A DNA stretch of 60,137 nt, the filler included, from Hausera hauseri (lineage: Eukaryota), in NCBI GenBank assembly GCA_046269625.1. It is 11 parts of 11 records of this genome, joined end to end, with 100 filler letters (N's around TTAATTAATTAA, not from the genome) between each part and the next. Parts side by side here need not be neighbours in the genome. Positions count along the whole stretch, not along the records: positions 25,502 to 29,691 come from JBJURY010711104.1; 10 more parts are not named here. One strand, written 5' to 3'. The notes beneath the pieces were generated by a model that did no database searches, was not told where the DNA came from, and saw nothing but the letters and a program-made list of their open reading frames with translations. Positions 11,935 through 57,212 of the stretch are shown here, in pieces. Each line of letters begins with the position of its first letter. Positions within the stretch are counted from its first letter, which is position 1. A program made the position numbers and the translations under genes.

Positions 11935-14905
11935 GGCCGTACGTCCAACTCTTATTCCACCCCACCAATTTACGCTTATCATTGCATGATAAAGCGACTT
12001 TTGTATTGGTCACCATATACAGCTGGTGCTCAATCTATCGGATGATTGTTTGTGACAAGTCTTTCTTGTCCTCCTTTATAGACACGGCGATAATCACCGT
12101 GATTTATTTCCGTCTGGGCCAACTGAACTCCTTTGGCGTCCATTTTCGGTCCACAGTCAGTTAAAAGACTAACATTTTGGCTGTAGAAATACCCATTCCC
12201 TATACTGAACCCGACCTTCACTTTTATCCCTGAAGCAGCCGATTTTGTTTTTGATGGCATTTCTGTACAATGGATTATTCTGTGGGTAACTGGACGTATC
12301 CAGTAATACATCTGCCATCATTTGCTGTAGTAGTTGTTCGCGATTGACGTTTTCCAGTTCCAAGAAAAAAGTATCTGTGTCACCGGCTATTATATTGATT
12401 CATCCGCCGCCGCCGAACATTTGCCGGTAACGTGCCAAATCGCGATACTGCAGCTCATACATCCGCAACTTGCTCAGGTCCAATACCGCTTGTCCTATAT
12501 AATTTGGCCGGTCCAGTATGACTTCTTGCGTGTTTAAAGCACGGCAACTAACTAATCGGCAATGTGCATTGATCGCCTGAACTGTGCCTTACTCGTGTAC
12601 GTAACCAACCGCCTTTTGCTACTGCATTGTCGTACATTGAGCCGCTTTTTGAGCTGTTTTTTGTAGAGATAATTGTTTTTCAGTTTGTAATAGTCTTTTT
12701 CAAACTTCGTATAAGCTGAAGCTGGTTTTTCCGAATTCCGACTGATGTACGGCTTGAATATCGGAGCCTGTGAGAATCGGATTGTGCGATGTAACCTTGT
12801 GACGAGTACGCCCAACTGCATGTAAAATTGCAACAGACGCCAATGAACTATGTTATTTTGCTTGGGTTCATGCGTCATAAGCAGCTTTTCACCTTCGACA
12901 ACGGCGGACATTGGCTAACTGGTGCCACCCACAGTTCATCCAGAAAGTTATGCAGCTCATCTGGTACCACGAGATCGACTTCCATAATGTATTCGTTTCA
13001 GCTGTTTTCTGCTGTCGTGTATACTACCGACAGATTTTCCAGTATGTGTCCAGGTCCTGTTTGTCAACTACCCATTCGAATGACCCATACGGCAAGGGTT
13101 GTGAAAGCGCTCAGCCGTACAGGTTATTAATGTCGATATACAACAGTTATGTGGTATCATCACTGGTTACATGGTGCTTGTTGACATGTGTCATGCCGCC
13201 ACGAATACCAACATCAAACATTCGGTACATTTCCGGGTTTTGCAATAGCTCGATATCCCGATCTAATGAGATCAGAGCTGATGCCCAACTCATTCCGGAT
13301 ATTGAGTAAAAGTTAAGTGGCTCCAGCCTATCTTCTGCCAACGCTTTAGCTTGAAATGTCTGAAACACATTGGCTAACAGATACACGTACAATTTCAGAT
13401 ACTGAAGCAGGTACTTCAACAGGTTTCTGCAGCCGAACTCTGCCCAAAACGATTGTGCTTTGTGATTTTCTTCTTCTGTGATACCGGGCCATTGCGGTGG
13501 TAATGCGTCTTTCATCTGTAGCCGTTCGTACGATATCTCAAAGTCATACGGGAATATGCCTTTTGCTACGTGCAATATGTGTGGGGAACTGAGTCAATGT
13601 TAGCGAAACATCTGGCAAGGCATTTTCCAGTATTGCCAGAGATTCATTGAAAAATTGCAATGAATTGAGAAAGCGTACCTGGAACCGGTTTATACGAGCA
13701 GACAGTGACAGGTATTACTCTATCTTAGTCGGAATTACGAATAGTTTCCAGTTCGGAAATCTGTTTATTGACCATTTTAAAATATGGTGACAGTCACAAC
13801 CTCTGAAGTTATGAAAAATCACCGGTAGGAATAACCACACATGCCTTGTCAAATTACATGAATTACATGCGGCTCCGAGATATCGGCCGATAAAATTGTC
13901 GCGATCCGTACGACCCGTTCCTGTGCATCAAACGGTAATATTTTGTGGCACAGGTAACATTCATCTGTGACTGCAAACGTCAGGCGCTCATCTTCATCTG
14001 TCTACATCAAAGGTTTGTTGCCATTTGTACTGTACCATGATGAGATTTCCGTTTCTACTATTATTTCCAAGTGATGCAGGAAATCGTATATACAGTTCCA
14101 GTCATGAAAAACGTAATATTATGGTTGATCTGCGGCTTTTGTTGGAACAACCAACATAGCGACAGCGATTGGAACATGTTTTTGGTAATATGCGTTGTGC
14201 CGTGGTAAGATAGCTTTAATACCGGCATATACTAGATATACCGGATTGTCTGTTTTTGAGCAATCAGTGAACCTGAGTTCCCTTTTGACGGGCATGACAT
14301 ACATTGTGGTTTCTGACGAATTTTGTCTGAACAAAGTCATATATTTCTTCCATGTTGTTTCCGACCTGAATCCATGCAGACATACAGGACACCATATATA
14401 AAGTATACGCTTTTCGATGAACTGACCATGTTCTATGTTCAACAGTCTGTTCAAATTTGTCACGGCCACGTAATGGAATTTTCCGTCCTTTTTCTCTAAC
14501 AGCAATAATTTATTGGGCGTCCATTCGGGTTCCGACTTCTATAGATTACGTCCACATTAGGGTTCTTGTAAATTCCTTCGTCTCTCGGTATTTCTGCGAT
14601 TGTGTTGTACCAGAACACGTTAATTGATAGTGTCCGATTACGCTGTTCAAAAGTCAGAATGTTTTTCAATTTCATCGGCATCCAACATTAATCAAAGTCC
14701 TAACCGGAAAATACTGCCGATACCTATTTGGGGGATATGCATTGTCTATCCACTTGGTCATATTTTAATACGTCCAGAATGCTGTAAATGAAACAGTATT
14801 CGTCTTCAGTATTTTTTACATTCACTACCGCATAAGAGTGCTTTAGAGCTCTAGGTGTCGGTATGAATGTTCGCCCGTACAGGTAAATTATATCACTCGA
14901 CTTTG
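11935..14905 (-). pseudogene. Polinton/Maverick-type protein-primed family B DNA polymerase with endonuclease VII-like insert
   Basis: AVVNVKN..DEYCF, PVIFHNFRG, KGIFPY, GIRGG, LYIDINNLYG, EKDYYKLKNN, LDTSSYP..NPLY, KIGCF; C-x2-C...GAAC..CNL module. Confidence 0.9.
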
Positions 14906-16544: not shown

Positions 16545-17170
16545 NNNNNNNNNNNNNNNNNNNNNNNNNNNNNNNNNNNNNNNNNNNNTTAATTAATTAA
16601 NNNNNNNNNNNNNNNNNNNNNNNNNNNNNNNNNNNNNNNNNNNNTGAATAGGTTCACTTGCTTCAAACCATGCACATGGTTTGCTCCAATCCATATCGTA
16701 TACTCTAAGTGACTAAGTTTTGGATATTCTTTCGTCTTGCCGCATATTGTAGTTTTTCGATTAGGGTTATCGACCTTGTCTTTGGTATATACGAAGCGAT
16801 TAACGATAAGGCGAGGACTATTTGTACATACGATATTGGTCTAGTCACTATCGAGGACGTTTTTTCTTTGTTCGTATAGTCCAATTTTGCTTTTCCCGAA
16901 CGCAGATTATAGCGCTTACTTGGCCTTATTTCCGTTTTGACTACTCTGGATTGATATGACTTCCTCCTTGCCATTTTTGTTTATATAAACGGTGGCTGGT
17001 GTGGTTTTGGTAACTTCGTAAGGTTCTCTGCCTGTTTTGGTGCCTTTCTTTGCTACTGAGTAATGTACGTAAACCCAATTTCCTGGTTCTAGGTCATGTG
17101 GTTTAGCCTTCTTGTCATATTGCCTTTTATATTATTCTTGGTATTCTCTGGATAATTCCTTGGCTATTTC

Positions 17171-18508
17171 TCAACACTTTTGTAATTTCAATTGTAATAC
17201 TTCGACAAAATTTTGCTCCAAGTCTTCCGTTCTGGTTGTATATGGAATCAGTCCTAAATCTGTAGGTAGTACAGCTTCTCCACCGTACATCATGAAAAAC
17301 AGGGTAAATCCTGTTGTAGGATGTGATGTAGTATTAATGACAAATTGTGTACCTTCCAAGAAATCGTCCCAATCCTACTGGTTTTTCGCGACTACTGTTG
17401 ATAAGATTCGTATAACTGTCGCGTTCATTTGTTCAACTAGTCCGTTACATTGGGAATGATAAGCTGTTGTGGTTAGTTGCTAGATTTCGAAAATTTTGGT
17501 AATTTTGTCTAACAGTTCGCTTGAAAACTTTCTTCCTCGGTCTGTCAAAATTTTTTCAGGCGGCCAATATCTGCAAATAATTTTCTGGACTACTACTTCT
17601 GCCAGGGTCTCCGCCTTTGGGTCTATTAACGCTATAAACTCGACAAAATGAGTCAATTGGTCTACACAGGTCAAAATATATTTATTTCTTTTGTGAGACG
17701 TAGATAACGGTCCTACAATATCCATGGACATTGCTTGCATTGGTCTGTCTGGCACATTGATGAGTTTGAGCTCAGCGATGTAGTTTTTCACTTTTCTCTG
17801 TTTGGTTGCGCATACTTCACAAGCATTCACCCAATTTCTTACATCGATGTAAATGCTCGGCCAATAATATTTATTTAATATTCTTCCCAATGTCTTCTTC
17901 CACGACATGTGTCCGGCTAAATATAAGTCGTGTTCGGCTATTAACACTTCCACACGTAGCCCTTTTGGTATGACGACGAATTTTTGTCCCTTTCGTTCGT
18001 AGTACAACACATTTTCGTGATTAAAATCTCCTGCAACGCAATATTTGTGACCATGTCGTTGTAGGTATTTCCATAACTGATGACTTTTTGGTGTTTTGTT
18101 GGTATCAACGAACTCAACAATTTGTTGTATAACTTTGTCTTTTCTCTGTTCGACAGAAATCTTTAATGCCTTATCCAGTGTGAGAGTCCGTTGCCTCTCT
18201 ACTAAGTCTTCAAGGTAGGCTTTCCTCATTACCGTAACTGCGCTTGTTTTAGTTTTAAGTCTTGACAATGCATCGGCGTCGACATATTTATTTCCGGGCT
18301 TGTATTGGAATTCAATATTGTAACGTGAGATCTCCTCTATCCATCTGTTGAGTCTACAGGTCGGATTATTTGCTCTACCCTTCAAAGTCGTAACTGCCTT
18401 ATGATCAGTTACGATTACGATCTTTTGTCCATAGACGTACACGTTAAAATGTCGCAGGGCTTCCTTCACCGCTAACGTTTCCAACTCCGTTACAGAATAG
18501 TTCTTCAC
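17171..18508 (-). pseudogene. RNase H C-terminus and integrase
   Basis: TDHKAV, ADALSR, HD...GH...YYWP...CEVC, MDIVGPL, ILTDRG. Confidence 0.95.
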
Positions 18509-18576
18509 GGCTTTCTTTAAAGAGCGTCATCCATATGCGATCGGTTGTTCTAGCTCCTCGTCTTCTCGTTTCTGAG

Positions 18577-19471
18577 CTAATTCATACCCAATGCCTTACT
18601 GGCGTCTGTTTTGATTATGAACGGCAGGTTGAAGGCAGGATATCTTAAAACGGGTTCACCATTTAGAATTTTCTTCATTTCATTGAAGGCTTTCTGTTCA
18701 ACGTCGAACCATTTCCATTTGATCCCTTTTTTAAGCAAGCGGTACAAATGTGCGTTTATCTTTGAATTGTCTGGTACATAGGTAGCATAATACCCACATA
18801 ACTCCAATTAGTGTATTAATTACCTTTGATTCTGGGGTTTTATGCAGTCCGATATTTTATTTAGAAAGGATTTATCCGGCTTTGATCTTCCTTCTCCGAC
18901 TATATGTCCAAGATAAGACACAGCATTTTGAGCCCATTTGCATTTCTTAGGATTTAGTTTTAATCCAGCTTGCTCCAATCTCATGAGTGTACCCTCAATA
19001 TACTTTAAATGACCCTCTTCCGTTTTTGACACAATCATGACGTCATCTAGGTAAGCGAACGCGTGTTCTAGTCCCATTAGCATCTTGTTCATCATGCGGG
19101 TAAAGATGGCTGGTCCGGTCGTTATTAAATTCGTATATACCGTCGTGTGTCTCAAACGCGGTTTTGTAACAATCTTCCTCTATCTCTACTTGCCAATATC
19201 CGGATTGTAAATCAATTGTGGTGAACCATTTAGCTCCAGAAAATCTATCCAGAGCTTCCTTTACCGATGGTAATGGAAAGGAGTTTTTCATCATAAGCGT
19301 ATTTAACTCTCGATAGTCGATGCAAAATCGGTGCTTAGTGGTACTTTTCTTCTTAACCATGAGGATAAGTGAATACCAAGATCTATAGCTTGGTCTGATT
19401 ATATCGGCCTTCAGCATTCGTTCAACCTTTTTGGTTATCTCTGGCCTTAACGAGTGTGGATGGGGTACCAT
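18577..19471 (-). pseudogene. Reverse transcriptase / RNase H N-terminus
   Basis: IDLQSGYWQV, KTAF, AYLDDVMI, YLGH. Confidence 0.95.
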
Positions 19472-20330
19472 TTCGGCATCTTTTGCTCCTCTAAATCTAT
19501 TTCATCGTTGGACACAGGCTTTTTCTTAAGTTGGATCGCGAGTCTTAAGGCTTTAGCTCGGCCAATATCTTCGTCTTTAGCAATGACCGAACTATGACGA
19601 CAAAGTAATTCATAAAATCGACAGTATGATTCTGGTGAAAATTTAGTTTTAACGTGGGGTGGAAATTCAGTACATTTATAAGGTTTCTCTTCGATGGTAA
19701 CTGCCGGTACTCTATACGTGTGTCCCAAAGTAGTATTGGCATATAGTTTGATAGGGGTGGGTGCATTATTCGCTACCCTGATTGGTACGCGCCCTGCTGA
19801 TACTATCGTTAAAACATTACTGATTACGATGTTCGGATTAAGAGATTCCTTCGGCTCAAAATATACTGGCTGATCATCATCTTGACGTATCTGAGCATAT
19901 ATTAATATTTCGGTTCTGGGTGGTATGTTTTCATCCACGGGAAACCACACTTCTCCGAATTTTCTGTCTTTAGTGGTTTTAATTCCTTTTATTGGGCCAA
20001 GTTCTATCAATTTCCCTGCATTGAAATCTATCGCTATGTTGGGTAGTTGTCTCAATAGATCGCACCCCAATACTACATCATCCGTTAGTTTCTCCATTAT
20101 TGAAAATTCATGATAAAAAGATTGTCCCATAATACGAATTTCTGGTCTCCATCGGAATTTGCTTTTAGACGATTGATCGAAGGCTTCGACACTTCCTGGG
20201 TCTGTTGTGGGAGATGGATATAATTGTTTCCGTAGGAATTGCGGTATTGAATCATACTTTATCAGTGATATTCTGAATCCTGTATCTATCAGTGCATAAA
20301 CGTCCCAATTTTTGCGAAGGGCCTTCTTTC
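19447..20330 (-). pseudogene. Aspartic protease and PR-RT spacer domain
   Basis: YALIDTG near 20280-20300; VVLGCDLL. Confidence 0.85.
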
Positions 20331-20854
20331 GATTACCGTACCGTAATAACTTGGTGCTATTTGGGGTGTCGTATCGTGGACACTTTGTAGCCGTTGATGG
20401 TAACTTCGGTGGTTCCGACTGGCTGATCGATTAATTGCCTTAACTCTCCAATTGGGTATAGTTAGTTATTCATACCATTCGCGTTTTCTGTTTCTTGTTT
20501 TCTAACTGGTAGCTGGATTTCTTGGTTTCTGAAATGGTGTTTCGCGGCTTCCGGTAAATGTTCACTGCCTTTCGTTTGGTTTAGGTATTCTAGGTGAATA
20601 AATAATACCGTGATCGTCGAATGCTAAGCGACGATGTGGGGCAGACGTCCTTTCCATTTCGTGGATCTTACGCAATATCCCGTAGCGTTTTATTCCTTCG
20701 TAAGGATCCTCTAGACTAAACGGCTTCCGATAGATCCCTGTCTGAAACGAACTCATAGATTGTTTCTCACAGTCTTCATATATAAGTGCCGTTGGCAGCA
20801 GTACTGGTAATGGTAGTTTAATAGCAGAGTAGTTTTGTGCCTGTTCGACTTGGA

Positions 20855-20872
20855 GATAACGTCTCCTCCCTT
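20855..20872 (-). promoter_or_regulatory. Polypurine tract and probable LTR start after the glycoprotein gene
   Basis: AAGGGAGGAGA-CGTTAT, matching the PPT-TGT junctions at 27855, 40792 and 56294. Confidence 0.65.
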
Positions 20873-21017
20873 AGACTCGTCATCGTCATAGTTATTTCTT
20901 CGTGTCTTACTATTTATGAAGTTTTGTCTGTAGTTGAATATGCGTCTTTTACGTTTTCGATTATGGTATCCAACATGTCGCTCCACATTCGCTTTCCATA
21001 TATTCTCTTCATAAGCC

Positions 21018-22871
21018 TTAATGGGTCATAATATCTGTTAGAATCTTACACCAGAATCCTGTAAAAGTGAATATCTCGTATCCATTTATAATCTCTTGAA
21101 TTATTGCTTTGACCAGTTGAATCAAGAAATAAATTGCTAGGAATCCTGATGAGGCTTGTCCAAATATCAGGAATCTCCCCCAAATTTTATACAATATTTC
21201 TGTAGTTACTCTTCGGTAGTAGTTGACACCGAGCAATGATTCCCACTTCGCTTGATAACGCGAGTCCTCTAGTATTGTATGCATCACTCTGTTTAATTGA
21301 TGTATGCGCTGACGGGAGAAAGCAAGGAACTGTCTGAACGCCTGTACTTCCTTCGGTCGGGAAATCCCCTTTGCGGCGGTATCTTGAAATTTATCATCGG
21401 TTATTCCTTTTATTAAATTTTTTCCGGTTAATTTGGTCGGTGGCATAATTATTCCGCCGTTTGGTAAACTTACCCAATCGGTTTCACTACGCCTGAACAT
21501 CGGTTCGCATAGGGTGGACATGCGGTCTCTCAAAATTGTCGGCTGAGCAGAGTTTGCCAACAATATTCTAGTAATTGGTGTTACTAACCTTGGTACGTCT
21601 TGGTATATTACTGGAAGTTTCTGTATACACCTCTTCTCTTCCATATTAATAGGTACATCTTTCTTTTCACATTCGTAGGTCAGTAGGACTTCTCCGGTTA
21701 CCCGTCCGAAAATGCATTCTTTCAATGGAATTATTGGTGATGCTAATTCAGGATTAGCATATGTTAAAGCCAGTTTACTCCGCATAACTTCCAAGTCCAA
21801 TTTGCAGTCATTTGTTATCATTTTGTGATATAAATCGGCTATTCCTGCTTGTGCTTTGTAGCAGAAATAGTCGTCTCTGTTTTTCAAATAATCTTCAATT
21901 TGAATATCTTGAGTCTCGAGCTTAAACGTCCTGGCGTTTATCGCCGTCTTAGCTACAAAGGATGCTTCACAATTGGTGGAGTACATTATGATATCGCACC
22001 TCGTGAGTACATTTTTCTTCACAAATTTTAATCCATTAGTGTCAGAAATCAGTATTCTGGGTGTGGACTGTTCGGTTAAATATTCTCGTGTTTTAGAGTT
22101 AGTTTCCGTGCTATTTATGTATTGTTTCCCTGTCGTTTCATTAAACTTAAGTTCTCTAATTCTGATAAAATAGCAATCGGTCTTGGCTGAAAGTTCCCAA
22201 ATTACCACGGAGCTTTTGAAGGAGCAAGTATCGTCCTGAATGTGGCACTTCTGGTTTTCCGTGTGAAGCTTAGTAACGCTATGGAACATTACCTTTTGTA
22301 GGCGAATTTCAATTTCGTAAAAATCTACTACTACGATGTTAGACTTTAGCCCTTTTCCAGTATCGTATTCTGCGCCATTACAATGTCCGGTGTGCATATC
22401 TAGTCTTCCAGCTGCCACTTTATATACTCTGATTATCTTTTCTTGTTGCATTTCCAATTCCATACCATTTCATTTTAATCTTCCAGTCTCTCTAGCTTGC
22501 TTACAATGCTAACGTTCCAAGTTCATCGGAACTGGTGGGTTTGTTGGCTTGACTAGCGATGAATGCCCATGTACCAATCCGCAATGGAAAATACTGCGAG
22601 ATCGTCGCAACATACATTCTATTCCGTCTAATGTAACTAATTCGCGTTGTTGGTACAGCACGTAATTTTTCTCTTTTGTTTCTAGTTTATGTGGTCTCGC
22701 ATCTTCACACATTTCTAAGTCCATTAATGAGTATTTTTGGCCAAGTTTAAATTTGTCGCATTCGTACACTGTAACTGCACCCATTTGACTTATTAAAATC
22801 ATCACGGTTAAGAAGTTAATTAACCAGTTTGGCTCGTTTCCTCTATTATTTCCGGTTACGTTTCGTAACAA
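21018..22871 (-). pseudogene. Chuvirus-like (class III-type) envelope glycoprotein, retroelement env
   Basis: Signal peptide, then VYEC...YSL..LEMC...YQQ...IEC...IFHCG..HGHSS...G.C.G..Y...NIVV...C......C......W......C; C-terminal WGRFLIFGQASSGFLAIYFLIQLVKAII..IINGY hydrophobic region. Confidence 0.8.
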
Positions 22872-25401
22872 GTCTTCAAATCTATTATTGCCAAGAAGGG
22901 CCTATTTTGATGTTCTTCTTCTTTTTCAAATAATTTGGACCAGTTTACTTCTCGGGGCAATTTCCTGGCAGCCTTCCTTGCCAAGCTAATGGTCTTATTA
23001 AATTCGTTTTCTCGGACCCGATTGATTTTAACGGCCAAATATAGCAACACTTTTCTTAACTTCTCCATGGTGTTTTCTACCATAATCTTCTCGATTACCA
23101 CTGCATCGCTTAAGGTGCTTCTGGATAATTTACACCGAAAAATTTTCATGGCTTTGGCTGCATTAAATATAGCCTTCTCTTTCTCGTTTAGTATATCACC
23201 ACTGAGACTAGAGTGGTTTACTATACGTATCAATTTTTTCATGAGTTCATTCAGTTCTTCGTCATCTGCACTGAAGGTCGGTACGGAAATTTGCCTCAAT
23301 TCTCTGATTAAGTCCCCATTATAATCGATTTCTTCTCGTGTCTTTCGCGGCCTACCGACAGGATGCTTCTGTTTTGTTACAGTCGGTCTGGTATCAATGG
23401 TTGGTACTAGATTCTTATCATATTGTTCCTTGTCTTCATCTGTTTGCAAGTATTCGAAGTACATTGCTGCATCTCGAACTCCTACAATTCGTCCTACCCA
23501 CTGTTCAGTCTTTGCCTTTGGTGGCCTCTTCTTTTGTTTTGTCGGTGGGAATTGTTACTACTATCCGGTTTGCTTCGTCTGGAATAATTCCAACTTCTAT
23601 TAGTAGTTCCAGTTCGTCTAATATTCTTCCTCTAAAATGAAGTCTACAGTTCAGCTCACTTGTATGACCATTACTCCTTAATCACAGTGCTACATCCTTC
23701 ACAAGAGAACGTGTAGTAAACTCGTGCTTCTTCTGATCCATTCAGTCAAACGTTATTCTTACTTTAATCGTCTCTTCGGACCTTGTCTTTAAGAATTTAG
23801 CATATTCTTTGATTAAAAGTTTTGGTGCGGCACTATAAATCGTAACTTCGCTGGCTAATTTAGTTAGGGTGGGAACTAACCGCCTTAACTGATTTTCGGT
23901 AAGGTTTGCATTGATTAACTTAATTAGATCCTTTTCAGTTTGTGATGAGTCCAGAAGCATCTCCACACTAAATCTCTGATCTGGTGGACACGTCTCCGTT
24001 TCGTACAAGTGCACGGGAGTTTTCGGGTTTTCGGCGAATATTGATTTAGATACGCGTCCCATTTGTTTTCGATTTCGGGTAGTCCGAAATCAACCTCAGG
24101 AGTTTCTAACGGCCGGACTAAGTTCTCATCTTTTATTGATTCTCTTAGTTTCCGTAGTTTTTGTTGCATTATAACCATTTGTATGGTTCGGAAACAACGT
24201 CCATTTCCAGAGGTTTGGCGTAATACTGTTAGCAGCTGACATAATTCTTCGGCTGGTATAAATCCTTGTTCTTGATAATTAGTTAGCTCAGAAGCTACAT
24301 CTCTTTGCCATTTTTGCACAAATTGTGACTTCTCAGGCTTTTCTGCTTCTATAAGAGCATACTTATTTTTATACATTTCGAGTTCTTTAGTTAGTTCGTC
24401 TAATCTTACCACTCTCTGTTTGGTTTTAATGCAAGTTTCTTCAATTTGTCGTATCTGTGGCTACAATTATCTTATTTTCTCGTCACTAATTTCTGCTATT
24501 TCCACCATCAGCAGTGCTAATTCATGCATCTCATTAATAATTTTTGAGTCTGGGTCTATTTCATCAAGTAATCTTTTTACAAACTTGGCCTCTTCAAAAT
24601 TAAGACGGTGGTCGTTCCTTACTTTAGTCAGTTTGGTACCATACCTTTGGTCTGTTCCAGCCATCCTTTCTCAGGGGTGGTGTAAGAACGTCACTACTTC
24701 GAGGGTCGACTGATATTCTTGGCAAATGTCTAAAGTTCTGAGATCTCGAACCAATATCTCCTCAATAGGTTTGGCTGTTAGATGTTGGATTCCTTCTAAG
24801 CGGATATTTCTTAATCTTGGATAAAAGTCACTAGTTAAATTCCGTTTTTGTATAAAATTTGTTTCTTCTGTCATTTTATATATATATATATATCATCCAG
24901 CATCTTCATTTCTTGCTTCTTTTTTATAAAGTTTAATTTACGTAATGCATCGAATTGGGTCCGGACGTCAATCTCTACCTTCATCGTATTTAAATTTCGT
25001 GCGTCTTCTATTTGTTTCCTTACTGTAGGCTCGCTCTCTGGAAATTCTTTTTTGCGACTTTCTAGCAGTTTACTCAACCTCGTTATTACTTAGGACCACT
25101 CATTCAATTGGTTAGCGATTTCTGGTTTTGCCCATATTGCCTGGTCTAACGTTTTGTGAACGTCTTCTAGTTCACATCTGGACCTTTAATAAAATCAATG
25201 ACCTGACGGGCGTAGTTGAACTCATCTTTATACTCATCAAACTCGAGGATACAGGCCGTAATTATTTTTTGTGTTTCATCATTATTTGTTTGCATAATTC
25301 TATTTCTTAGACTGCATATTTGCAATCTTTTTTCGGTTTTAATTTTAATCCGATTTTCCAGACTTGTATATTGTTTTGTTGCAGTAGAAGCGATTTTTAT
25401 T
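22856..25401 (-). pseudogene. Fragmented large accessory ORF upstream of env, helical and charged, function unknown
   Basis: Series of adjacent or overlapping co-oriented ORF pieces (25077, 24874, 24664, 24412, 24062, 23464) running into the env signal peptide. Confidence 0.6.
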
Positions 25402-25501
25402 NNNNNNNNNNNNNNNNNNNNNNNNNNNNNNNNNNNNNNNNNNNNTTAATTAATTAANNNNNNNNNNNNNNNNNNNNNNNNNNNNNNNNNNNNNNNNNNN
25501 N

Positions 25502-27896
25502 TCCTCATCTATGTTGTTTCATATCCTTTGATAAGGAATATATGATATGGTATTGGACAGGATTGAAAACGAATGGTGACTGGAAATGGTCGGATGGATT
25601 AATAGGTCCAGAAGTAATAGTGAGATCACCAAAAGCAATAATAACCCCTACTAGGATAACAATGACCTCTACTATAAATGTAATGACTCAGAAATCGACT
25701 AGAGTTATGAACATAATTAGAGAATTAGACGTAACCGTACAGTCGACGCCACACTCTCTCATCATCACTGTGTCGAATTTAAGGAATACAAATATAAAAT
25801 TTGAGTGTTTCCTTTATAATAGGATGGTTAGTGAAGGAGTTTTAACTCCTGAAGAACCGACATCTGCATGTATGTTCCTAAAAGCCGATACAAACTATAA
25901 AGTTATCATAACAGAGCTAGATGATGAAGGAGGAAAATTACAAACAATCTCCCGTATAGAAAAAACTCTAAGACGGACAATAACAACCCCGAACATTATG
26001 CGTAAGATGACTACCCAAAAGCTTGAAGAAAATCCGAATAAATACCTTTGGATGATCATAGTACTATGTACTCTTTTAGTGTTATTAGTCGTACTTTTAC
26101 CTTTAATAATTTATTACTCAAAAATAAGACGACGACGTAAATTAAGAAAAACCCTAAATCAACTAAGACTTTTAAGAAAAGACTCTCAAGATGAGTCAAT
26201 AGGGGATATAAGTGCGCCTAATATCAAAATCCAACAACGGCAAAACTGTCCGTTAATAAAGGAACCTTCGGCTGAAAAACCGAATAATCCTCAATGGCAA
26301 GATTGTCCATTAACACTCCGTAGCGATGAGAATCGATTAATTAAACGACAAGAAAGTCGAACAATGAATATAATCGTAGGATATTGTACCAAAATCCAAG
26401 ATTGGTCCACTAACTTTTTCGTATCGTATCAGAATTATAAATCAAATTCATTTCGTATTCCTTATTTTGAATCTTTTTGGCTCACATACATCTATTTTTT
26501 TTAGTTCAGCAAGGATCAGAAATCGCGGAGAGACCAAAATCCTTTTACTATAATGTTTTAGACAATCTCAACCAAACCGTCAACAAGGATTATATATATT
26601 ACGGTAAAGCTACATTGATCCCTAATAATCTAAAAGGGCACCTTCTTCAACAAAGGGTGGCCCTGATTATAAAAATGTCCTCAGCAGCGACAAAACTATC
26701 GGACTTGATCGAAGTTTCTAATCGAACAATATCAATTTATATATCCGTAGCAAAAAGCGGATTACAAATTAAAAGCAGAACTCATATTAATGAAATCACA
26801 GATACTTTAGAAGTTCCTAAATTGACTACGATTAGATTGGACAAAAGGTTTTACAAAAATGCTACTTTGGTACTCCGACCGTATGGTGGACCACCCCCAG
26901 TTATTTACATAGAAGCTATTCACAGAGACATCATTCCCCAACCAGAATACGAGAAACCTGTCTATCCTAAAAACCTGCCTCATCTCAATCAACTGACACA
27001 AGGAATATCCTTTGTGAGATTGCCAACTCTTCTGGAAACAAAGATGGTAGTTTTGGCTTTCAATTCAGCCTATATACTAACCCCCCTCAGAAATAAAGAA
27101 AAAACTTTGGTAGAAATAACTATAACTGATATGGAAGGAAATATAATCCTGGACGAATTAGTTACACCTCGCGATCGAGTGGACAATTTCGATAGCCAAA
27201 TAACTGGCCTCAAAGAAATAGATCTTATTTGAAAAACGGATGCATACCAAATTAGAGCCCTCATCCGACAAAAAACTCTACGACAAAATAATTATTGGTA
27301 TGGACATCTATAATTCCAATTTACATCTTGACCTCTTCAATATTAATGCAATCCGTGGAATTAGAGACCTCCTCTATCACGATGAAATTAATCCAGAAGG
27401 AAAACTTAGTCAAAAACAAATTCTTATGAAATTCAACGATATTGTCTATCCCCATCGTACTAAAGACAAGGCTTCCACAATGTTAAATATCTATCGTTCT
27501 ATTAACGAATACCGAATTGATAATCAAATCCTTCAGAACTCACCAATTCCGACAAAAGAAACTCAAATAGAACCTGTCCAAGATTCTATATTAATCCCAG
27601 AACCAATGGAAACAAACCAAGAATTACCTTCCCAAGTTACTAGTAATCAAGAATCTGATATAAATCAATCTACCGAATCTATTGTTATAGATCTTACCAA
27701 GTCAAACAAAAGAAAGAAACAAACACAAGAAACAATAACTCTCAAGAAAAAAATAATGAGGAAAGGAGAATGGGGACGGATAGAATCCGCCAGTTATCGG
27801 TACGATAACGGAATTCTAAGAACCTACCCTTTGATGCTGAGGACAGCATCATCCAAGGAGGGAGGTGTTGGACCAGTTGAGCCGGCTGTTAATTAA
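25502..27896 (+). pseudogene. Retroelement 3' accessory polyprotein: lectin-like motif, FN3-like domain, TM, cytoplasmic domain, inactive DEDDh exonuclease fold
   Basis: YWTGL...WKWSDG; L.ADTNYKVII; TM YLWMIIVLCTLLVLLVVLLPLIIYY + KIRRRRK; EITITDMEGNIILDELVTPRDRVDNFDSQITGL...IIIG...IRD; ends in PPT/LTR. Confidence 0.75.
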
Positions 27897-28569
27897 ATTT
27901 GAGTCAGTCGAGCCGGCTGTTAATTAAATGAATTGACTAATTGAGTCTCCTGAAAATAAATTAACTGTCTCCCGATAATTCAATCGAGAATTTAATTATT
28001 GATGGACTACTGAATTAATTTTCGCCAGATATTTGTTACCTTTTTATTTTATTTTCTTGTAAATTGATGATCAACGTTTTTATTATTGGTGAATTTTTCT
28101 TTGTGTGTTCATAATTAGAAATTGCTATAAATACATGAACATTGATGATTGAAACACAATCTTTCTTCTGACTTAATCAATGTATTTTGATGGATGTAAG
28201 TGTTTTGTTATATGTTTTTATGGTTTCATTGTATTTAGCTCTTAATTAGATATTTATTTTTGAGTAATTGTTTTGTTTTCTATAGTAAGGTATAATTAAT
28301 TCTTAAATTTTAACCCACTTTGGTATTCCGGTCCCGTAATTGACCGGATGTCTAACGTTTTCTAAGTAAGGGGTAAACCGTCAGTGTCCCTCCTGAACGG
28401 TACTCACCTTAAGGTCAAATAAAGCCTAAAGCAACCCCACAGGTTGCTTATAAGAATAATTAATATCAGGTCTAGTGGGAAGGAGAAACCCTAGACTTTA
28501 TTTAGTACTAAGTAAAGAGTATAAGTTTAGGGTCGTAAGACCAATAAATCTTTGCCTATAAACTTATCA
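27866..28569 (+). repeat. 3' LTR
   Basis: PPT AAGGAGGGAGG at 27855-27865, TG...CA termini, TATA-like at ~28125, structured 3' end. Confidence 0.8.
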
Positions 28570-28582
28570 AACCTTTTTTAAT

Positions 28583-29253
28583 TGTGATATAGCACAAGAC
28601 TGTTTAGTCTAGTGCAGATTTATTTTCACTTGATTTTTCTTGCACGTTTTGGAAATTTATCCGTTTTATTTTATGTTATTGGATTTACATTTGCATTTTT
28701 CTTCTTAAATTGCATTACTGAACAAGTATAAATAGCAGAATCTTCCATTTATACCTAACCTAACATTTTCTGGAAATGACGTATTTGTATGATTATTGTA
28801 AGTATTGTTACATTGATTTATATCTTTTATTCTTAAAGATATCTGTTTATTGATTCATATTGTTTCTTTTAAAGGCAATAAAGCATTGATATTTAACGTC
28901 TTGGTTTGATTTAGTTGGATATTTAGTATTTTATTCTTAAATCTTACGTTGATAATAACATTAAGTATTGTAATAAATTAAATAATAAATTCTTGGGTCC
29001 CTTTTTGGTATACCGGACAGTAAAATCCGGTTGTTAAAATCAACTAAATAAGGGGGAGAATCGTCAGTGTCCCCTGACGAAACTCACACCGTAAATCTAA
29101 ATAAATTAAGTAAAGTTATCGGCAACCCACAGGTTGCTATAGACTGATATATAATAATAAGGTCTGAAGAAAGGAGGACCTTCAGACAGTAAAGAATAGA
29201 GTATAAGTTTAAGGTCATAAGACCAATTTTTCTTTACACCTATAAACTTATCA
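28583..29253 (+). repeat. Second, related solo LTR in tandem
   Basis: 3' ~250 bp is homologous to 28318-28569 and ends in the identical CCTATAAACTTATCA. Confidence 0.75.
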
Positions 29254-29615
29254 AATGCAACACCACACAAAGCAAACCCAGTTCAAGATACGTTGAAAAC
29301 ACTTACTGGGAGTTGCTACCCCACCCGCCGTATTTATCAGACTTGGCTCCTTCTGATTACAATTTGTTTTCATCGATAGGACACGCACTTGCTGAACAGC
29401 ATTTCAATACTTATGAAGAAGTCGAAAATGGGTCGATGGATGGTTTTCTGCAAAGGACGAACGGTTTTTTGGCATGGTATCCACATACTGCCAGAATGAT
29501 GAGGAAAATGTGTGAATAACAATGGACAATACTTTGAATAAAATATTTTGTATTATTCTGTTAAAATAAAGGTGTTATTTTCATTAAAAAACGATGGTTT
29601 GATATTTGTATTTTT
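29254..29615 (+). mobile_element. Mariner transposase 3' remnant
   Basis: LPHPPYLSDLAPSDYNLF (YSPDLAPxD motif). Confidence 0.92.
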
Positions 29616-29791
29616 GTAAATCAATTGTATTCAATCTTTAAGTAATCATATCATTAAAACAAACTATGCTTTAGTTTAATGGGATTAAGAGNNNNNNNNN
29701 NNNNNNNNNNNNNNNNNNNNNNNNNNNNNNNNNNNTTAATTAATTAANNNNNNNNNNNNNNNNNNNNNNNNNNNNNNNNNNNNNNNNNNNN

Positions 29792-38662: not shown

Positions 38663-40811
38663 AATGGGACTCATTCCAAGGAAGACAAAGTCGGTTTAGC
38701 ACATTTGTATTTAACAGTAGGGATTTCCACGATTACAAGCTGAAATTTCGCATAGCCGCTTTACCCGCGAAACTAATGGTTGAAGTAACCGAAGAGGAAA
38801 CAACGACCACTTCATTGCCGCCATTAGAATTCAGACAAAGGCCCACTGAAGAAGAACAAGACGCGCACCTACACTCATTTAGACTAGTGAAAAATGACAG
38901 AAATATTAGGATTATCGCGATAAATTATGGGGAAGGAGACGAAGGAAATTATATTCCAATTGAAATATCTATACGAGAAATAAACGGGGCCGAAGTCTAT
39001 TCGAAAATCATTAACCCAAGAAAGAAAGTAGAAAAAACCTATGCAGAAGTAATCGGAATAAAAAGAGAACAGTTAATCCACGGCAAGGATTCCAGATTAG
39101 TGCAAGAGGAAGTAGCACATTGCCTATACGGATACGTCATAGTGGGGTATCAAGTAGAAAGAATGATAGAAAAATTAAACATACCAGCAACTCAAATAGC
39201 CGGAATGAGAGATATAGAGACCCACCCAACTGTGATTGAACAAATGGAAATCAAGGTCAAAGAGTTGAAGGGTCATCTACCGCCGACCGTGAAAGGCCGA
39301 TTTAAATTAATGGTAGAAGCAATGACTGGAGGACACATTAAGATAAGCCGACTGCTGACCGCTAGTCAATTCTCCTAATATCTAATGGACATAAATGCAG
39401 GATTAAAGTAGGAATATGAGTGGACCCCCAGTAATCCTGGACAAAACCTACGAAGTCTCCCCAAACTCGAAGGAATCAGTACACGATATAGAAAACATTT
39501 CCCTCCATATTCCCGCCAAAAAATGTTGATATCACGCCGAAGTGGAATTATCAGATAACCATCCAAGGATTAAAATCCGAAAGAACGGAAGAAAAACTGC
39601 CAACAGACGAGAAGCCTAGTACTAGTTTCGCAACTTAGACGGCCGAAAATCGTGGCGAGTTCAAGGTACCAGAAGTTCCCAAAAAACGCATTAAAAAGGA
39701 AGAAAAGACCAAAGGAAATGAAATCGAAAAAACGATAAAAAAAACTTCCGTCTTCGATTATCTATTCAAGAAAAAGAGTAAAGAAAGAGAGAGGGACCAA
39801 GAACAGGATTGTGAATACAAAAGTAAGAAGCCAACCTGCAAAATGGATGGACTAAGTAACCAAGAGGAACACATAACTAATCAACAAAGAACAAAGCAAG
39901 CTAAAGAAACAAGGGGCGAATAACGGAAATAAATATATTAAGGAAGAAAAACTCCACGGACGATGTACATTACGCCACTACGGAGAACTACCCTAGAATG
40001 CTGGTAACAACAGAATACTATAGTCAACAAAGGATTAAAGAGGCCATGTTTTTCGTCAAATTTATGCCCGCAAGGCAAGTATACGAGAACACTTATGTCT
40101 GGGAAAATCCTAAAGTCGGAAAATACGTTGCTGCTGTATTTTAGTCAAAAATAAATGGCAAACTTATAGTTCCCTAAACAAATCCGTAAAGTTGTTACTC
40201 AAGAAACAATATCAAAAATACCGATCGACTGGTGAAATTCCCGATTTAAATCGAGATACTATCAGCGATTGGACCCTAGTACCCGTGTGATGCGATCCCA
40301 AGAAGAGTTCAATAAATCCAAAACAGAAGAGAATATATGCCTATTTATACCAGGATGAAGAAGGATTGATAATAGAACCTATCGAGATTATGATAAGAGT
40401 TGCTTGAACCACGAAAATTTGGAGAAAGGAGAAAAAGAATGCCCAGTGTGCGAAGCTAACCTCAAACAAGGCTATGTGATTTTGGACAATTCGAACTGTC
40501 GACATAAATATTGTCGAGATTGTTTAGAAAAGTGGATATTAGATAACGGCAAAACTACATGTCCAGTCTGTAGGGCTGAAGCCACACACCTGAAATATTT
40601 TTCAAATGGGATTTATACTAGGGTAGTTAGAATAAAACCATACCACAGTTACGAATTGGAAATAAGTCCCAGAGAAAACCAAGCCAGTACAAGCTCCGAA
40701 CTCAGTTTAAGACAACGGATGAGCTTATTACGATCATCGCGTTTAGGCGTCACCTCTCCTGACACAATGGACACATCCGAGGGTGCCGCTCAAGGAGGAG
40801 AAATGTTATAA
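38663..40811 (+). pseudogene. Retroelement 3' accessory polyprotein: inactive DEDDh exonuclease fold, charged linker, unknown domain, C3HC4 RING
   Basis: PIEISIREINGAEVYSKIINPRKKV......IGI...L..G.....V...V...L.GYVIVG...RD; CPVC-x15-CRHKYCRDC-x12-CPVC; ends in PPT. Confidence 0.8.
40404..40811 (+). CDS. C3HC4 RING finger domain (putative E3 ligase), polyprotein C-terminus
   Basis: All eight Zn ligands and the conserved Trp present. Confidence 0.88.
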   Translation: MNHENLEKGEKECPVCEANLKQGYVILDNSNCRHKYCRDCLEKWILDNGKTTCPVCRAEATHLKYFSNGIYTRVVRIKPYHSYELEISPRENQASTSSELSLRQRMSLLRSSRLGVTSPDTMDTSEGAAQGGEML

Positions 40812-40882
40812 ATAGAGTAGACAATAGACCAGTGTACATATTATTACTGAAGTTAGCTGTAGTCAGATAATAAAAGTATTGA
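40804..40882 (+). repeat. Start of 3' LTR (interrupted)
   Basis: PPT AAGGAGGAGAAA at 40792-40803, then TGTTATA. Confidence 0.7.
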
Positions 40883-41615
40883 TGTTATAGTTGGGGTGGT
40901 CCTTACCTTCTCCCACTATAACAATATTAATTTCAATTTAGATTCGCTCTATGAGCAGGTTAGGATTACTCGTTCTCGAGTAATCTGATTGTGCCTTAAG
41001 ATTTTAAAAAGAAATTAGTTTTTGATGCCGGTACTGCGTGCAATAAAACTGCGTGTCTTAAGTTAGATTCTCTCAACCTAGCTATAGAATTTAAGTAAGA
41101 TTTTACCCTTAGTGTAGTGCAAATCGTCCTTAAGGGACGATGGAAAACTATATGGGATTTTAAATAACGATGAAATAACAAATCACCTTTTATTTGATGT
41201 ACTGACAATTCGATACAACAGTGTTTCTCAAGGAGAATAATTCACGATAATAATGTCAATCGATTTCCAAATAAGCGTAAGTCGGTTCACGGAATGGCGT
41301 ATTGCTTCTTTAAATTTCTACGTTGTACGACTCTAATTCGTACTCTCAATCGTTCTACTCTCACTGTTTTTCAATCTTCTTATATACTATTCTGACCGGA
41401 TTCCGATTTCTAATTATTTACAATTGTTTTACCTTATTTCTACATTCTAATTAAATTATCCAATTTTAACCAATTCACATTTAATAATCAATTTAATCAA
41501 TTCATAAACAGAGGTTCCAAATTATGTACACAATTACGCAAACGGATATTTATCCAATTAATTTTCTGTACGGCCATGATTCGACTTCCGTACTGTTTAT
41601 TGACCTTTTATTACA
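40883..41615 (-). repeat. Inverted LTR related to 56306-57093
   Basis: Reverse complement shares GATTACTCGAGAACGAGTAATCCTAACCTGCTCA, CGAATTAGAGTCG and the terminal hairpin; TGT...ACA termini. Confidence 0.85.
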
Positions 41616-41619
41616 CTAA

Positions 41620-44210
41620 TATTTGTTTAATGAAAAACAATGCCTCTCTTAAAGTTCATGTTAATAGATGCAAACCGGCAGCTAAAGAAAGCAAGCTTAG
41701 AAGAGATGAACAAAACACAGTAAGAAGTATTAGTGATAAAGCCATGAAAACAAAGCCAACACAAAAGCTTTATGAAATGAAGAAATATCTCATAATAATA
41801 ATTCTTATGCTTATTTCCCAAACCTTAAGCCAGGTGACAAAACAAAAAGTTGAGCATGCAAAAATTCGATATGCAATAGCTATCAATAAAGATTTATTGT
41901 TAAGGAGCTTACGATACCGAGTGATATATTCGAGTAAAAGCCAAAAATGTATTATATGATATACTCTAAGATAGATGGACTCCGGTTACTTAATAAGAAT
42001 TGAAATGATACCTTACGATGACGGTCAAAGGAACCCTAGTAAACAACAGCACAATTGTGTAGGCCATCCTTGGATAAATGAAACCCAATGTGTTGTGGAA
42101 AATTCATGAATTTATAATGTCTTCCTTTCATAAAGAAGAAAGTAAACTATTATCAAAGTCGATTTACTAAATTAGCGAAAGTTATAAGAGTTCCCACTAG
42201 GCATGAAATGAATCAGACATTACTGGACGAAATAATAATAACACAGTTATCGGCTAGGTCAATCGGGTTTAAAGGTGGAAGAAGTTGTATAGAAGTAGCT
42301 AGTATGATAGAACTAGAATATATACGATGGATAACCATAGTTATAAAAGAGATGAATGCCCAAAAGGGTATAGTTACAAAATGTAAAATAACAGATGAAC
42401 AACAGAAAGTCTGCTGTAATGTCACTAGAGGAAAAATATATGAACTAGACAATATGATTTCTCGAAAGAAATATGGAAAATTTCAAGGCAGATTAAAGAG
42501 GAAAGGTCCAACAATGTATAAGATATCAAAATCGGATTGAATATGAAGAAAAAGGAGAAAATATTTCGATACCAGCTATGCATTCTTCATTGAATAAAAA
42601 GAGTAAAGAGAGATGACTATTTTAATTAGGCCATACGCATCGTATTACCGACAAAAACGTTCAATATGGTAAAACATAACGATCACAGCGGCGTCGACCG
42701 CACTAATAATATCTTTAAAACCAGATCTTGATTTCTCGAAAGTAAAGTTCACATGCAAGATAAGAGAAACAATAGTAGCAACAGGAGACATAACACCAGA
42801 CGACCTAGTAGTACCATGCGCTGCATTAACCCCAAATACTGTTCGACAATACTAATAAAATAGTTTCTACAAAAATTGTAACAGCTCAAACAAAAAACGA
42901 AGTAGAAATAAAACTACCTTTTAAGAAAGCGATTGTTAGCCAGTCGATGACTATTATGCCTTTGCATTAACTATTATCTAAACTCTATTTTTACATTATC
43001 TAACGAGATCCAGTCTATACAGCTCTCCAGGCGTTGGTTCGACAATACCCACAAACATTTATTGAACGCAAACCGAACCAGTATTACACAGTGCTACATG
43101 ACAATACATTCTCATTAAACTACCCCCAAGTACAGCAGATCCCAAACAACTTAAAGGGCTATAACATGGCCATTCCATCAATGGCGCTAATACATCTCAC
43201 AAAAACCACCTATTTCTTTCTAAAGGACCTGATCATTATGCCAGAAAATTATCATTGTTCAAATTTACAATATAGTTGGGACGTTTGAAATAAAAACGAA
43301 AGAAGTAAAAACGATAATAACTGGCGATCTTATAAATCTAGACCAGTGCTACGGAATATCTATCGATTTTGTCTTTGCAATTAAGAATGCCGTAAAAATC
43401 AGGTCCCTCTCCAGTCTAATTGTACTTGGTGTTGGTCATCAAAACTGAAAAATCATGGCCAACAAATCCCGCGTGTAATTGTTTTAACCTCCTCGAAGCC
43501 AACTATCTAAATATGAAAGAAAAATCCTATAGTCGAACCGTAAAAGTTAATCCCGACAATTGTATTATAGTGGCCGTCAAGCTGGCATATGACAAATATA
43601 ACCAAATGCAGCCAATTGAATATTCAGTCGTGAAACCCAATGGAGATCCAGTTTTTTATACATTAATAACGCCTCGACAACGGATAAATAACTACGACAC
43701 CCACGTAACCGGACTAACGGATTTACAGATAGCCAATCAGATGGACGTCCAGCAGTTCTACGCCAAAATTTGGGAAATTCTCACAGAGAAGATGGTCATC
43801 GGGGCCGATGTAATAAACACTATTTCCACTTATTTGAAATGTCCATTACGGAGAATCGTAGGAATTCGTGATATTTTATATCATGAAGAGATTCTCCGTA
43901 AATACCCAATGGATTCTGTTAACCCACGTGAGCTAGCAAGAAAATTCCATAAAACACGGAGCATGCCATTATGAGGCACAGTAATGGTCCAATGTTTTTA
44001 AGCCTTATACCGCACATTACAGTGATCAGATGAAATTATAGATGAGAGGACGGCTCCCGAAAAGGTGTTAAAAACACCACCTACAGTACCTAACAAAAAG
44101 AGAAGGCTAAACATGGAGGTTTTGATAGACGGAGAAATCTATACAATGGACGCCATCCGCTACAAGGCACCATCCGGAAGGACAATTTTTCTTCCACCAC
44201 AATCGTAAAT
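41620..44210 (+). pseudogene. Integrase C-terminus followed by secreted/membrane accessory polyprotein with FN3-like and inactive exonuclease domains
   Basis: VHVNRCKP, then MKKYLIIIILMLISQTLSQ; KFTC...TGDITPDD...C..LTPNT; IPNNLKG; TLITPRQRINNYDTHVTGL...IRDILYHEEI, all homologous to 25502-27896. Confidence 0.75.
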
Positions 44211-46722: not shown

Positions 46723-48426
46723 TTGGGGAATCCGGCGAAACTCCGATCGAAAATCGAGATTAGGACAATAAGAGAGTATGTGTGGATGTGTGTGTGCATA
46801 GACTGTGTAAATAGGTATATTTGTACATAGGAGTGTGTAAATAGCTACGGCATGTTGAAAGTATATATTTGTACATAAGATTTAGTGTTTATAATGATAA
46901 TTGTGTGTGGTCCGGTTACAAAATGGGCACGTGTGATTGAAAAATGTAAAAATGTGAAATGCAAAATTGAAATGTGTTATGTAATCGTGACGCAACCCTT
47001 GTGGACGCTCATAAAGACAGAAAAGGAAGAGGAATACATATTAGTTATTAGATGTGTGTGAGTGTCTATAATAGATGCATAGAAAGAAAGAAGAAATAAT
47101 AATCATAAAGTGAAATATTACATATTGATAAATTAATATAGAATTAAAAAATTTAAAATTTGAATTTGATAAAGAAGAATGCGATTATGTTAAATAGGTC
47201 AAAACAAGATTATAAACAGTTATCCAGAATCAGGATATACAAATGCAGTTTCAAATATGAAAGAAGTGTTGAAGGTTCATGGAAGGTGGATGTGGGTCGA
47301 TTTAGAATTAATTTCCACGTGATAACAACGAAGATATTAAGTTTAATATCAAAAAAATGGTCAAAATGGAATTTATCTTCTTTTACTGACAAAGTTATTG
47401 TAATACATCTCTACTATGTTAACGACACAAATATCTTTACTACGATTGTGGAAGAGTTGGTAAATGATAACATGCCAGTTGATGTGATGTTAAAATCTGA
47501 CTTGAGTATACCGACCGAAGATCGAAACTTATGCTGTGGAATACGCAGACGAAATCTATCGACAATAATACTTAGACAAGGGCAAAATTTTAGAGGAAAA
47601 ATGAATCACCTGAGGGATTTAATTGTGAGGAAGTTTTTGTTATGGAATTATCGATGGTTCTCGTTATTATCGAAGGGACATTCTCTATTCGGTAGAACCC
47701 CTGTCATGATATACGATATTCTGTATGTCGTTAGTGGTGATCGCAGCGATCGAGAGAAGCTATGTAAAAGAGAAGGTACTGTTCATTATAATTGTTCTTT
47801 GTATTCCTTTTTGTTTTGTTTAATGGGTGGCAGCAGGGGTTGCGAAAAGCGAGTGCGTATGTGTGTACGTGTGATGGTAATTGATGGGTTTTATGCATTT
47901 ACGTGGGAACTAGATTTCGGGGTTAAGAAGGGAATCGTATGTGTTAGCCATTTTGAATTGGATAAGGAACAATATAAGGTCACAGACGGAAGATGTTTAA
48001 ATGGAGATGGTAAAAGTTATGGGCCTGGCTTAATAGAATACGCGCTTATTGGTGAATTGATTGAAGTTTTTGTGTGTTTGAATGATGAGACTGGTTTATT
48101 ATATAAAAGTAATAAAGATTCTCCAGAAGCAACTCAGGTGCAGATAACTACGAGGATTATCGAACCACCACCGAACCCAGAGAATATCCATTCCTGAAAT
48201 TAATAACAAACGAATCTATCACAAGCACAGAAAATCAAATAAAATATTCAACAAAAGGGAGAACCGATACTGACGTTGAGGATGACAATTGTTGGTATGA
48301 CTGTGGGTTTTGGTAACGATTCCCGATTTGTTCTGGACCAAATTTAATTTGTAAGATGGTAGTTTAATACCCGCATTTGTTGGGAGTTCTAACCCACCCT
48401 TGGAAAAGGTTACGCAACTCCCAACA
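46703..48426 (+). repeat. Long (~1.7 kb) BEL/Pao 3' LTR
   Basis: PPT AAGGAGGGGGGAAA, then TGCTAGGA ... TCCCAACA imperfect inverted termini; duplicated U3 motifs; AATAAA at ~48238; terminal hairpin. Confidence 0.7.
47187..48197 (+). CDS. Orphan ~336-aa protein encoded inside the LTR
   Basis: Uninterrupted ORF (open from 47160) in AT-rich DNA; no recognised domain. Confidence 0.65.
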   Translation: MLNRSKQDYKQLSRIRIYKCSFKYERSVEGSWKVDVGRFRINFHVITTKILSLISKKWSKWNLSSFTDKVIVIHLYYVNDTNIFTTIVEELVNDNMPVDVMLKSDLSIPTEDRNLCCGIRRRNLSTIILRQGQNFRGKMNHLRDLIVRKFLLWNYRWFSLLSKGHSLFGRTPVMIYDILYVVSGDRSDREKLCKREGTVHYNCSLYSFLFCLMGGSRGCEKRVRMCVRVMVIDGFYAFTWELDFGVKKGIVCVSHFELDKEQYKVTDGRCLNGDGKSYGPGLIEYALIGELIEVFVCLNDETGLLYKSNKDSPEATQVQITTRIIEPPPNPENIHS

Positions 48427-57093: not shown

Positions 57094-57212
57094 TAAGCAA
57101 CGATTTGAAACTAAAAAATTGGCCAACAAACTTATTTTACAGAATGTTAAATATACAAGTATGATAGTTATCAACTTTCTTTATATGTTCTACACTGATA
57201 GACCAAACGTAC

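Follow-up and report, generated by a model that had tools for sequence, protein, structure and literature searches.

Does the contig at positions 25502-29691 encode a single protein in which a surface receptor is coupled to a nuclease fold, or do its reading frames specify separate products? The window is a stretch of 60,137 nucleotides from Hausera hauseri, filler included, composed of 11 contigs of 4-9 kb each that are joined by N-linkers, and linkage of neighbouring contigs is not implied. The locus contig represents the 3′ accessory region of a multi-copy element and carries no pol. A total of 1800 contigs of run X1 align to its 4.2 kb, most of them less than 95% alike, which indicates a dispersed multi-copy family. 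Contig depth is much higher over the first reading frame than over the nuclease, although depth cannot rank the genes. The original prediction described one frameshifted ORF; we find three reading frames (ORF1, 25503-26504; ORF2, 26471-27232; ORF3, 27222-27896), and the first junction is unlike the other breaks. The locus likely holds two accessory genes in different frames, encoding two proteins and not one fused receptor. Its features are as follows.

25503..26504, plus strand: ORF1, truncated at its 5′ side by the contig end; ectodomain remnant, transmembrane helix and cytoplasmic tail of a single-pass membrane protein
25548..25598, plus strand: C-type-lectin-like WxGL..WxWxDG half-motif, with weak PDB matches; the rest of the domain is absent
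25728..25980, plus strand: beta-sandwich, FN3-like as a lead only (Atlas FN3 clusters, alignment within the window)
26052..26150, plus strand: transmembrane helix and basic stop-transfer run (hydropathy 3.44)
26376..26509, plus strand: T-rich segment with a splice-acceptor-like end, a possible intron (T content, rank of the polypyrimidine-AG)
26510..26935, plus strand: IPNN domain, a predicted double-stranded beta-helix, AlkB/cupin-like (homology to the P0004 model)
27045..27510, plus strand: ISG20/REX4-type DEDDh exonuclease fold without catalytic acids (profile, alignment)
27711..27835, plus strand: small C-terminal domain with a G-E...Y-R/K motif, common to a homologue and to relatives (alignment)
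27855..27868, plus strand: polypurine tract followed by TG, the likely start of a 3′ LTR; ORF3 continues through it to 27896
27866..29258, plus strand: LTR-like region of two diverged units (TATA box, GTAAGT donor-like site, structured element of ~260 nt), unpaired and with no fixed right end

ORF1 is already open at the contig start, next to the N-linker at 25402-25501, and its N-terminus lies beyond the contig. The strong transmembrane segment and basic stop-transfer run that had been proposed are borne out by a hydropathy of 3.44 over 19 residues, and the Thr-rich stretches are present in the sequence. The lectin assignment holds in part: the motif YWTGL..WKWSDG (we take the lectin motif in its customary definition) is there, but the domain is incomplete and ends after WxWxDG: the 54 residues that follow, where the Cys pair of a C-type lectin was sought, contain no Cys. 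All eight PDB matches of the motif at E ≤ 10 are receptors with a C-type lectin fold, all of them weak (single-domain E 0.76-1.6), the best match in the Atlas is Lectin_C (0.88, a lead only), and Pfam returned no family for this piece at E ≤ 10. The proposed FN3-like domain is a lead only: Atlas FN3 clusters score 0.75-0.77, and Pfam FN3 does not match the corresponding piece at E ≤ 10. This piece aligns with 42673-42855 of the homologue described below (27% identity, E 0.013 for the search within the window), and two Cys are conserved. The visible ectodomain contains neither an R-x-K/R-R furin site nor an N-glycosylation sequon. The absence of such a site and of any fusogen family match, compared with a match to PF24664 at E 3.7e-39 on the neighbouring contig, supports the view that ORF1 encodes a type-I membrane protein and not a fusogen. 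A word-indexed search with ORF1, covering proteins of 183-583 amino acids, returned no relative. Among the 40 of 588 inter-copy differences that were listed, 13 fall into ORF1 and nine of these are synonymous, against a fraction of 0.32 expected for random transitions (p 0.006); this excess indicates that the protein is under purifying selection. ORF1 would be translated to its own stop and would serve in attachment or adhesion without membrane fusion, the latter being left to a separate chuvirus-type glycoprotein such as that on the neighbouring contig.

The nuclease of the window copy is interrupted by a stop at 27230-27232 and by a frameshift near 27270. Every contig that covers these positions differs from the window (six from run X1 and one from run X2 at the stop; five and one at the frameshift), so that other copies read ORF2 and ORF3 as one continuous frame, and both breaks are private to the window copy or assembly errors. 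Two further copies of the nuclease fold lie elsewhere in the window.

41777..44208, plus strand: decayed homologous gene pair, with an ectodomain ORF led by a signal peptide, then the IPNN domain, a dead exonuclease and the C-terminal domain (alignment)
38665..39378, plus strand: third copy of the exonuclease fold, likewise dead; the RING gene downstream of it runs into a purine tract and TG of its own

The first of these agrees with the diverged homologue placed earlier at 41620-44210, and the fold at 38665-39378 had been overlooked. A profile built from four window pieces matched ISG20L2 in the PDB (E 5.7e-8), together with PolC exonuclease, ISG20 and SDN1, which bears out the DEDDh fold; the family profile gave E 2.6e-20 against ISG20L2. 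A single-sequence fold of the homologue's nuclease had a pLDDT of 37. The designation as a pseudo-exonuclease was also correct, as the catalytic acids are lost in the alignment. At the motifs that we presume to be ExoI-III, the window copy has S/Y (ExoI) and S (ExoII), with ExoIII loosely aligned and without an acid, the homologue has L/Y and T at ExoI and ExoII, and the third copy has Y/E and M.

A full-library search with ORF2 returned three matches and a profile search seven. One candidate, P0003 (plant, 4202 amino acids, E 9e-4), was dropped as a chance match. Five of the seven profile matches are environmental relatives, P0002 and P0004-P0007, which match PF00929 (E 3e-13 to 6e-8) and retain the ExoI D-x-E in all five cases and the ExoII Glu, with the ExoIII H and D in four of five (P0005 ends early). 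Their identity to the window copy is only 24-29%, but a profile of these intact relatives alone still retrieves the three window copies (E 2.7e-12, 4.7e-8 and 1.3e-7). Their first Met stands at the column where the ORF2 frame of the window begins, and they have no transmembrane segment. P0001 shares 51% identity with the window homologue over 266 columns and, like the window copies, is dead; as called, it starts with Met and has no ectodomain. The small C-terminal domain and, where covered, the IPNN domain are common to all members, and the family, as judged by its motif residues, apparently comprises branches that are live and others that are dead. Inactivation is old and not the result of recent decay, since it is common to four sequences that are only 23-51% identical. 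The dead nuclease may have descended from an active enzyme that is still present in the relatives. Genomic loci for the relatives were sought in metagenome contigs and viral contigs, with none found, and a word-indexed search of longer proteins with the homologue's nuclease, the only search that reached fused forms above 783 amino acids, returned nothing.

The motif IPNNLKG was present as reported; the fold of the domain around it had been overlooked. An AlphaFold model of P0004 from a nine-row alignment has a mean pLDDT of 41, with residues 50-125 at 67-84, and a Foldseek search with this model returned cupins, Pan2 and ISG20L2. In an unbiased comparison with 48,161 chains, six of the eight top rows belong to the AlkB family (Z 8.1-9.5, r.m.s.d. 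3.4-5.5, 115-125 residues aligned). The best chain is ALKBH6 (Z = 9.5, r.m.s.d. = 5.5, 125 aligned), other AlkB-family chains follow at Z 8.7, 8.6, 8.3 and 8.1, and cupins come within one Z unit of the AlkB family, at 8.4 and below. The hhalign probability was below 1% against one AlkB and also against 81 close bacterial AlkBs, a profile of low diversity, and none of seven family proteins matched a Pfam 2OG family. The HxD...H and RxxxxxR motifs, which we take to define AlkB enzymes, are not seen, and the alignment contains no HxD. On the basis of this model, the IPNN domain is likely a double-stranded beta-helix, and an AlkB ancestry has roughly even odds.

The arrangement of the two genes depends on the junction between ORF1 and ORF2. 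Here, the segment 26376-26509 has a T content of 0.43, compared with 0.21-0.26 in the flanking coding parts, and its terminal polypyrimidine-AG at 26509 is in phase with ORF2 and comes first of the 137 AG sites when these are ranked by a simple count of pyrimidines. In the ORF2 frame of the window, no Met occurs until residue 69. One near-identical contig covers 26206-26744 without a gap and with two differences, and the offset between the frames is therefore not an artefact of the window, although run X1 possibly derives from the source strain and the comparison is not fully independent. Among the 12 of 40 indel rows that were listed, none falls at 26340-26520; in one copy of 88% identity, a single unplaced gap lies within 26225-26744. 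The homologue likewise has its T-richest window directly before its IPNN domain, and two in-phase donor-like GT sites, at 26376 and 26421, lie on either side of the point where the T-rich segment of the locus begins.

The reading that we favour, with a probability that we place at about one half, is that the locus yields two accessory proteins: a surface adhesin and, from a spliced message, a decoy that binds RNA without catalysis. It is supported by the five relatives without a transmembrane segment that begin with Met at the start of the ORF2 frame, by P0001, which is also dead and starts with Met without an ectodomain as called, by the near-identical copy, which keeps the offset while the nuclease breaks are not shared, and by the lack of an early Met in ORF2 together with the T-rich stretch before the IPNN domain of the homologue. 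The proposed coupling of ectodomain and exonuclease in one protein is not borne out by these stand-alone, Met-initiated relatives or by the junction, which resembles a splice acceptor more than a decayed frameshift. What weakens the two-protein reading is that the relatives, at 24-29% identity, are known as proteins and the dead subfamily may have another architecture, that the 88%-identical copy has its gap in this very interval, and that the in-phase GT donors at 26376 and 26421 fit an internal intron equally well. Removal of such a short intron, from either donor to the acceptor at 26509, would yield a type-I receptor with a cytoplasmic barrel and dead nuclease, which we consider rather unlikely. 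To the same rather low degree, we can envisage that a receptor fused by splicing would hold the RNA of the element at the membrane where cells touch, while the unspliced message would yield the membrane protein alone. Fusion would agree with the sharp edges of the T-rich segment (26401-26506), with the phase of both donors relative to the acceptor, with a hydrophobic stretch in P0001 in frame before the IPNN domain (hydropathy 1.83) and with the repetition of the gene order in the homologue; the 42-codon tail across the T-rich segment is stop-free in 6% of shuffles and therefore need not be coding. However, one third of GT sites would fit any acceptor by chance, five relatives have their Met start at this column, and no intact transmembrane segment precedes the IPNN domain of the homologue, where the best hydropathy in all three frames is about 1.2. 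The P0001 leader, moreover, aligns with the homologue no better than shuffles do (123 of 200 are as good), and reverse transcription would tend to remove a short intron that is spliced constitutively. A still more specific proposal, in which alternative splicing produces a surface receptor whose pseudo-AlkB barrel and pseudo-exonuclease clamp element RNA at the membrane for contact-dependent cell-to-cell transfer, appears unlikely to us.

A single fused ORF, either broken in this copy by simple frameshift decay or held together by programmed -1 slippage in the overlap at 26471-26504, would account for the overlap of the frames across a T-run and for the unplaced one-base gap in the interval in one diverged copy. 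We nevertheless regard this as improbable, for the near-identical copy retains the offset yet lacks a nuclease break, no stimulatory structure lies downstream of the overlap (z +0.48), and the overlap reads as atypical hydrophobic sequence directly after which the relatives start. Under the two-protein reading, the ORF2 acceptor at 26509 would be joined to a 5′ leader exon that provides the start codon; speculatively, the leader donor may be a GTAAGT with upstream ATGs, located 70 bases after the TATA box of the LTR-like region.

The purine tract and TG at 27855-27868 conform to the prediction of a polypurine tract and LTR immediately after the ORF, and a TATA box follows 260 bases later. Five runs of purines followed by TGT are found in the window against 1.05 expected, and one of 200 shuffles reached five, for a pattern that was chosen after the site had been seen. 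Three of the five close an accessory ORF, namely ORF3 and two RING genes. An LTR partner for 27866-29258 is absent from the window, Rfam (hammerheads included) gave no match at E ≤ 1 for 27800-29400, and no tRNA was found. We conclude that the locus probably belongs to a large LTR retroelement and represents its 3′ accessory region. The idea that a retroelement carries here, as accessory genes, a membrane protein that is not a fusogen and a pseudo-exonuclease is supported; the link to pol or to Burro consists only of neighbourhood across N-linkers. The genes might instead be host fragments or come from a large mobile element of another kind, either an endogenous DNA virus or one that is Penelope/Terminon-like, with the purine tract arising by chance. 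In favour of such an origin, the contig has neither pol nor a paired LTR, tandem units of promoter, intron and structure lie downstream, and Terminons carry DEDD, transmembrane and other ORFs according to the portion of PMC6431247 available to us. We hold it to be improbable, given that a purine tract and TG close three accessory ORFs, that Rfam detected no hammerhead or other family at the above threshold and that the next contig bears an env-containing gypsy, while host genes would be at odds with the high copy number and the lack of introns elsewhere.

The structured elements of ~260 nt in the two units (28310-28575 and 28995-29258; z -3.0 and -3.95) each follow a TATA box and GTAAGT site, and six of 40 predicted pairs show two-sided changes in the alignment of the two sequences. 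Parts of them, with no Rfam match, reach the highest contig depth of the locus, and they may represent a small non-autonomous element or an RNA that serves in packaging or as a leader. A transposase remnant at 29260-29520, which we take to be mariner-like from its motif and for which Pfam gave no match at E ≤ 0.01, truncates the LTR-like region.

An exonuclease may also be present in nematode Cer elements. The family studied here resembles the cellular DEDDh exonucleases ISG20, ISG20L2, REX4 and SDN1 in fold and motifs, but is element-encoded, has live and dead subfamilies and carries extra N- and C-terminal domains. As in the inactive DEDD derivatives Maelstrom and EXD1 (the latter listed as inactive in the accessible text of PMC5408684), catalysis is lost and RNA binding may be retained. 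The LTR retrotransposons Juno and Vesta of bdelloid rotifers likewise have a 3′-5′ DEDD exonuclease accessory gene, ORF3, at the 3′ end of the element (Rodriguez et al. 2017, PMC5408684), and DEDDy is a known accessory domain of LTR elements (PMC6338049, in excerpt). As far as the former text extends, the Juno/Vesta nuclease is RNase D-like, of the DEDDy type, with intact residues and no transmembrane domains, whereas the present one is of the DEDDh ISG20/REX4 type, dead, located behind a predicted beta-helix and beside a membrane-protein gene. A parallel for an additional ORF with an AlkB-type fold is found in giant Ty3/Gypsy elements of Phalaenopsis, which encode an AlkB m6A demethylase (Alvarado-Marchena et al. 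2022, PMC9289625). That protein is, by the part of the article at hand, an active demethylase close to plant enzymes; the IPNN domain, in contrast, shows likeness at the fold level only, has no HxD in the alignment and is joined to an exonuclease.

Burro/GYPSM1, the accessory-rich giant gypsy of planarians, places a mononegavirus-like env after gag and before pol (Arkhipova and Yushenova 2019, PMC6431247, consulted in extract), and shares with the window the env-pol order, seen on contig 16645-25401, and RING domains. Such an order may point to a planarian host. The domains named for Burro in that extract (AIR1/RING, Smc, MATH, BIR, ankyrin, BCL2, SUMO-like, dUTPase and env) include no exonuclease, lectin, FN3 or AlkB, and the locus contig is unlinked to pol. 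One Burro gene is reported, in the available section of PMC13465017, to affect host regeneration. Exonuclease and AlkB accessory genes are thus each already known in LTR elements. The combination of an exonuclease with an AlkB-like domain in live and dead subfamilies is undescribed in the literature searched, with Grohme 2018 and Lee 2026 lying outside it; its novelty is provisional, as the figures or supplements of these two papers may already annotate these ORFs. The accessible parts of PMC8532177, PMC11410931, PMC13238120 and PMC13465017 contain no annotation of them, and literature searches for lectin plus FN3 extra ORFs and for gypsy, chuvirus and flatworm gave no match.

In invertebrates, the giant gypsy elements that bear an env contain accessory genes that extend over kilobases and lack annotation. 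An apparently live and a conserved dead ISG20-type nuclease with a predicted AlkB-like barrel would represent a candidate element-encoded suppressor of RNA silencing. Most tentatively of all, the dead nuclease and barrel may bind the element's own RNA and shield it against host trimming or piRNA-type silencing, a notion that draws on the action of inactive DEDD proteins in piRNA biology (PMC5408684, in the text available). The adjoining non-fusogenic surface protein suggests that attachment and fusion may be split between two genes. Should splicing fuse both genes, the resulting architecture would have no precedent in the literature searched.

Several other elements were observed in the window. 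The minus-strand region 16645-25401 is a decayed gypsy in which protease, RT, RNase H and integrase are preceded by a fusion glycoprotein of the Monjiviricetes/chuvirus type (PF24664, E 3.7e-39), and its region upstream of env is shorter than described for Burro1. At 38665-40150, a charged linker, now decayed, lies between the third dead exonuclease fold and the RING gene, and the same contig also carries the second receptor/nuclease pair, after a putative LTR start. The RING-finger ORFs at 40359-40811 and 55732-56310 are 65% identical, have an unnamed domain in common directly upstream of the RING, and each run into a purine tract and TG. Shortly after both RING-associated LTR starts lies a repeat of ~280 bp (40882-41163 and 56813-57094), 77% identical and in opposite orientations. 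A purine tract and TGT at 50215 (minus strand) has 11 bases in common with the tract of the locus and no recognisable ORF upstream. On the minus strand, 13147-13593 weakly matches protein-primed DNA polymerase B (PF03175, E 0.0026) and is a possible Polinton remnant, and 47157-48197 on the plus strand is an open frame of 346 codons with no Pfam match. Direct repeats starting with TG (57213-57280 and 59760-59827; 85% identical) lie 2.5 kb apart, and with decayed gag/pol-like sequence between them, 57213-59827 is a small LTR element.
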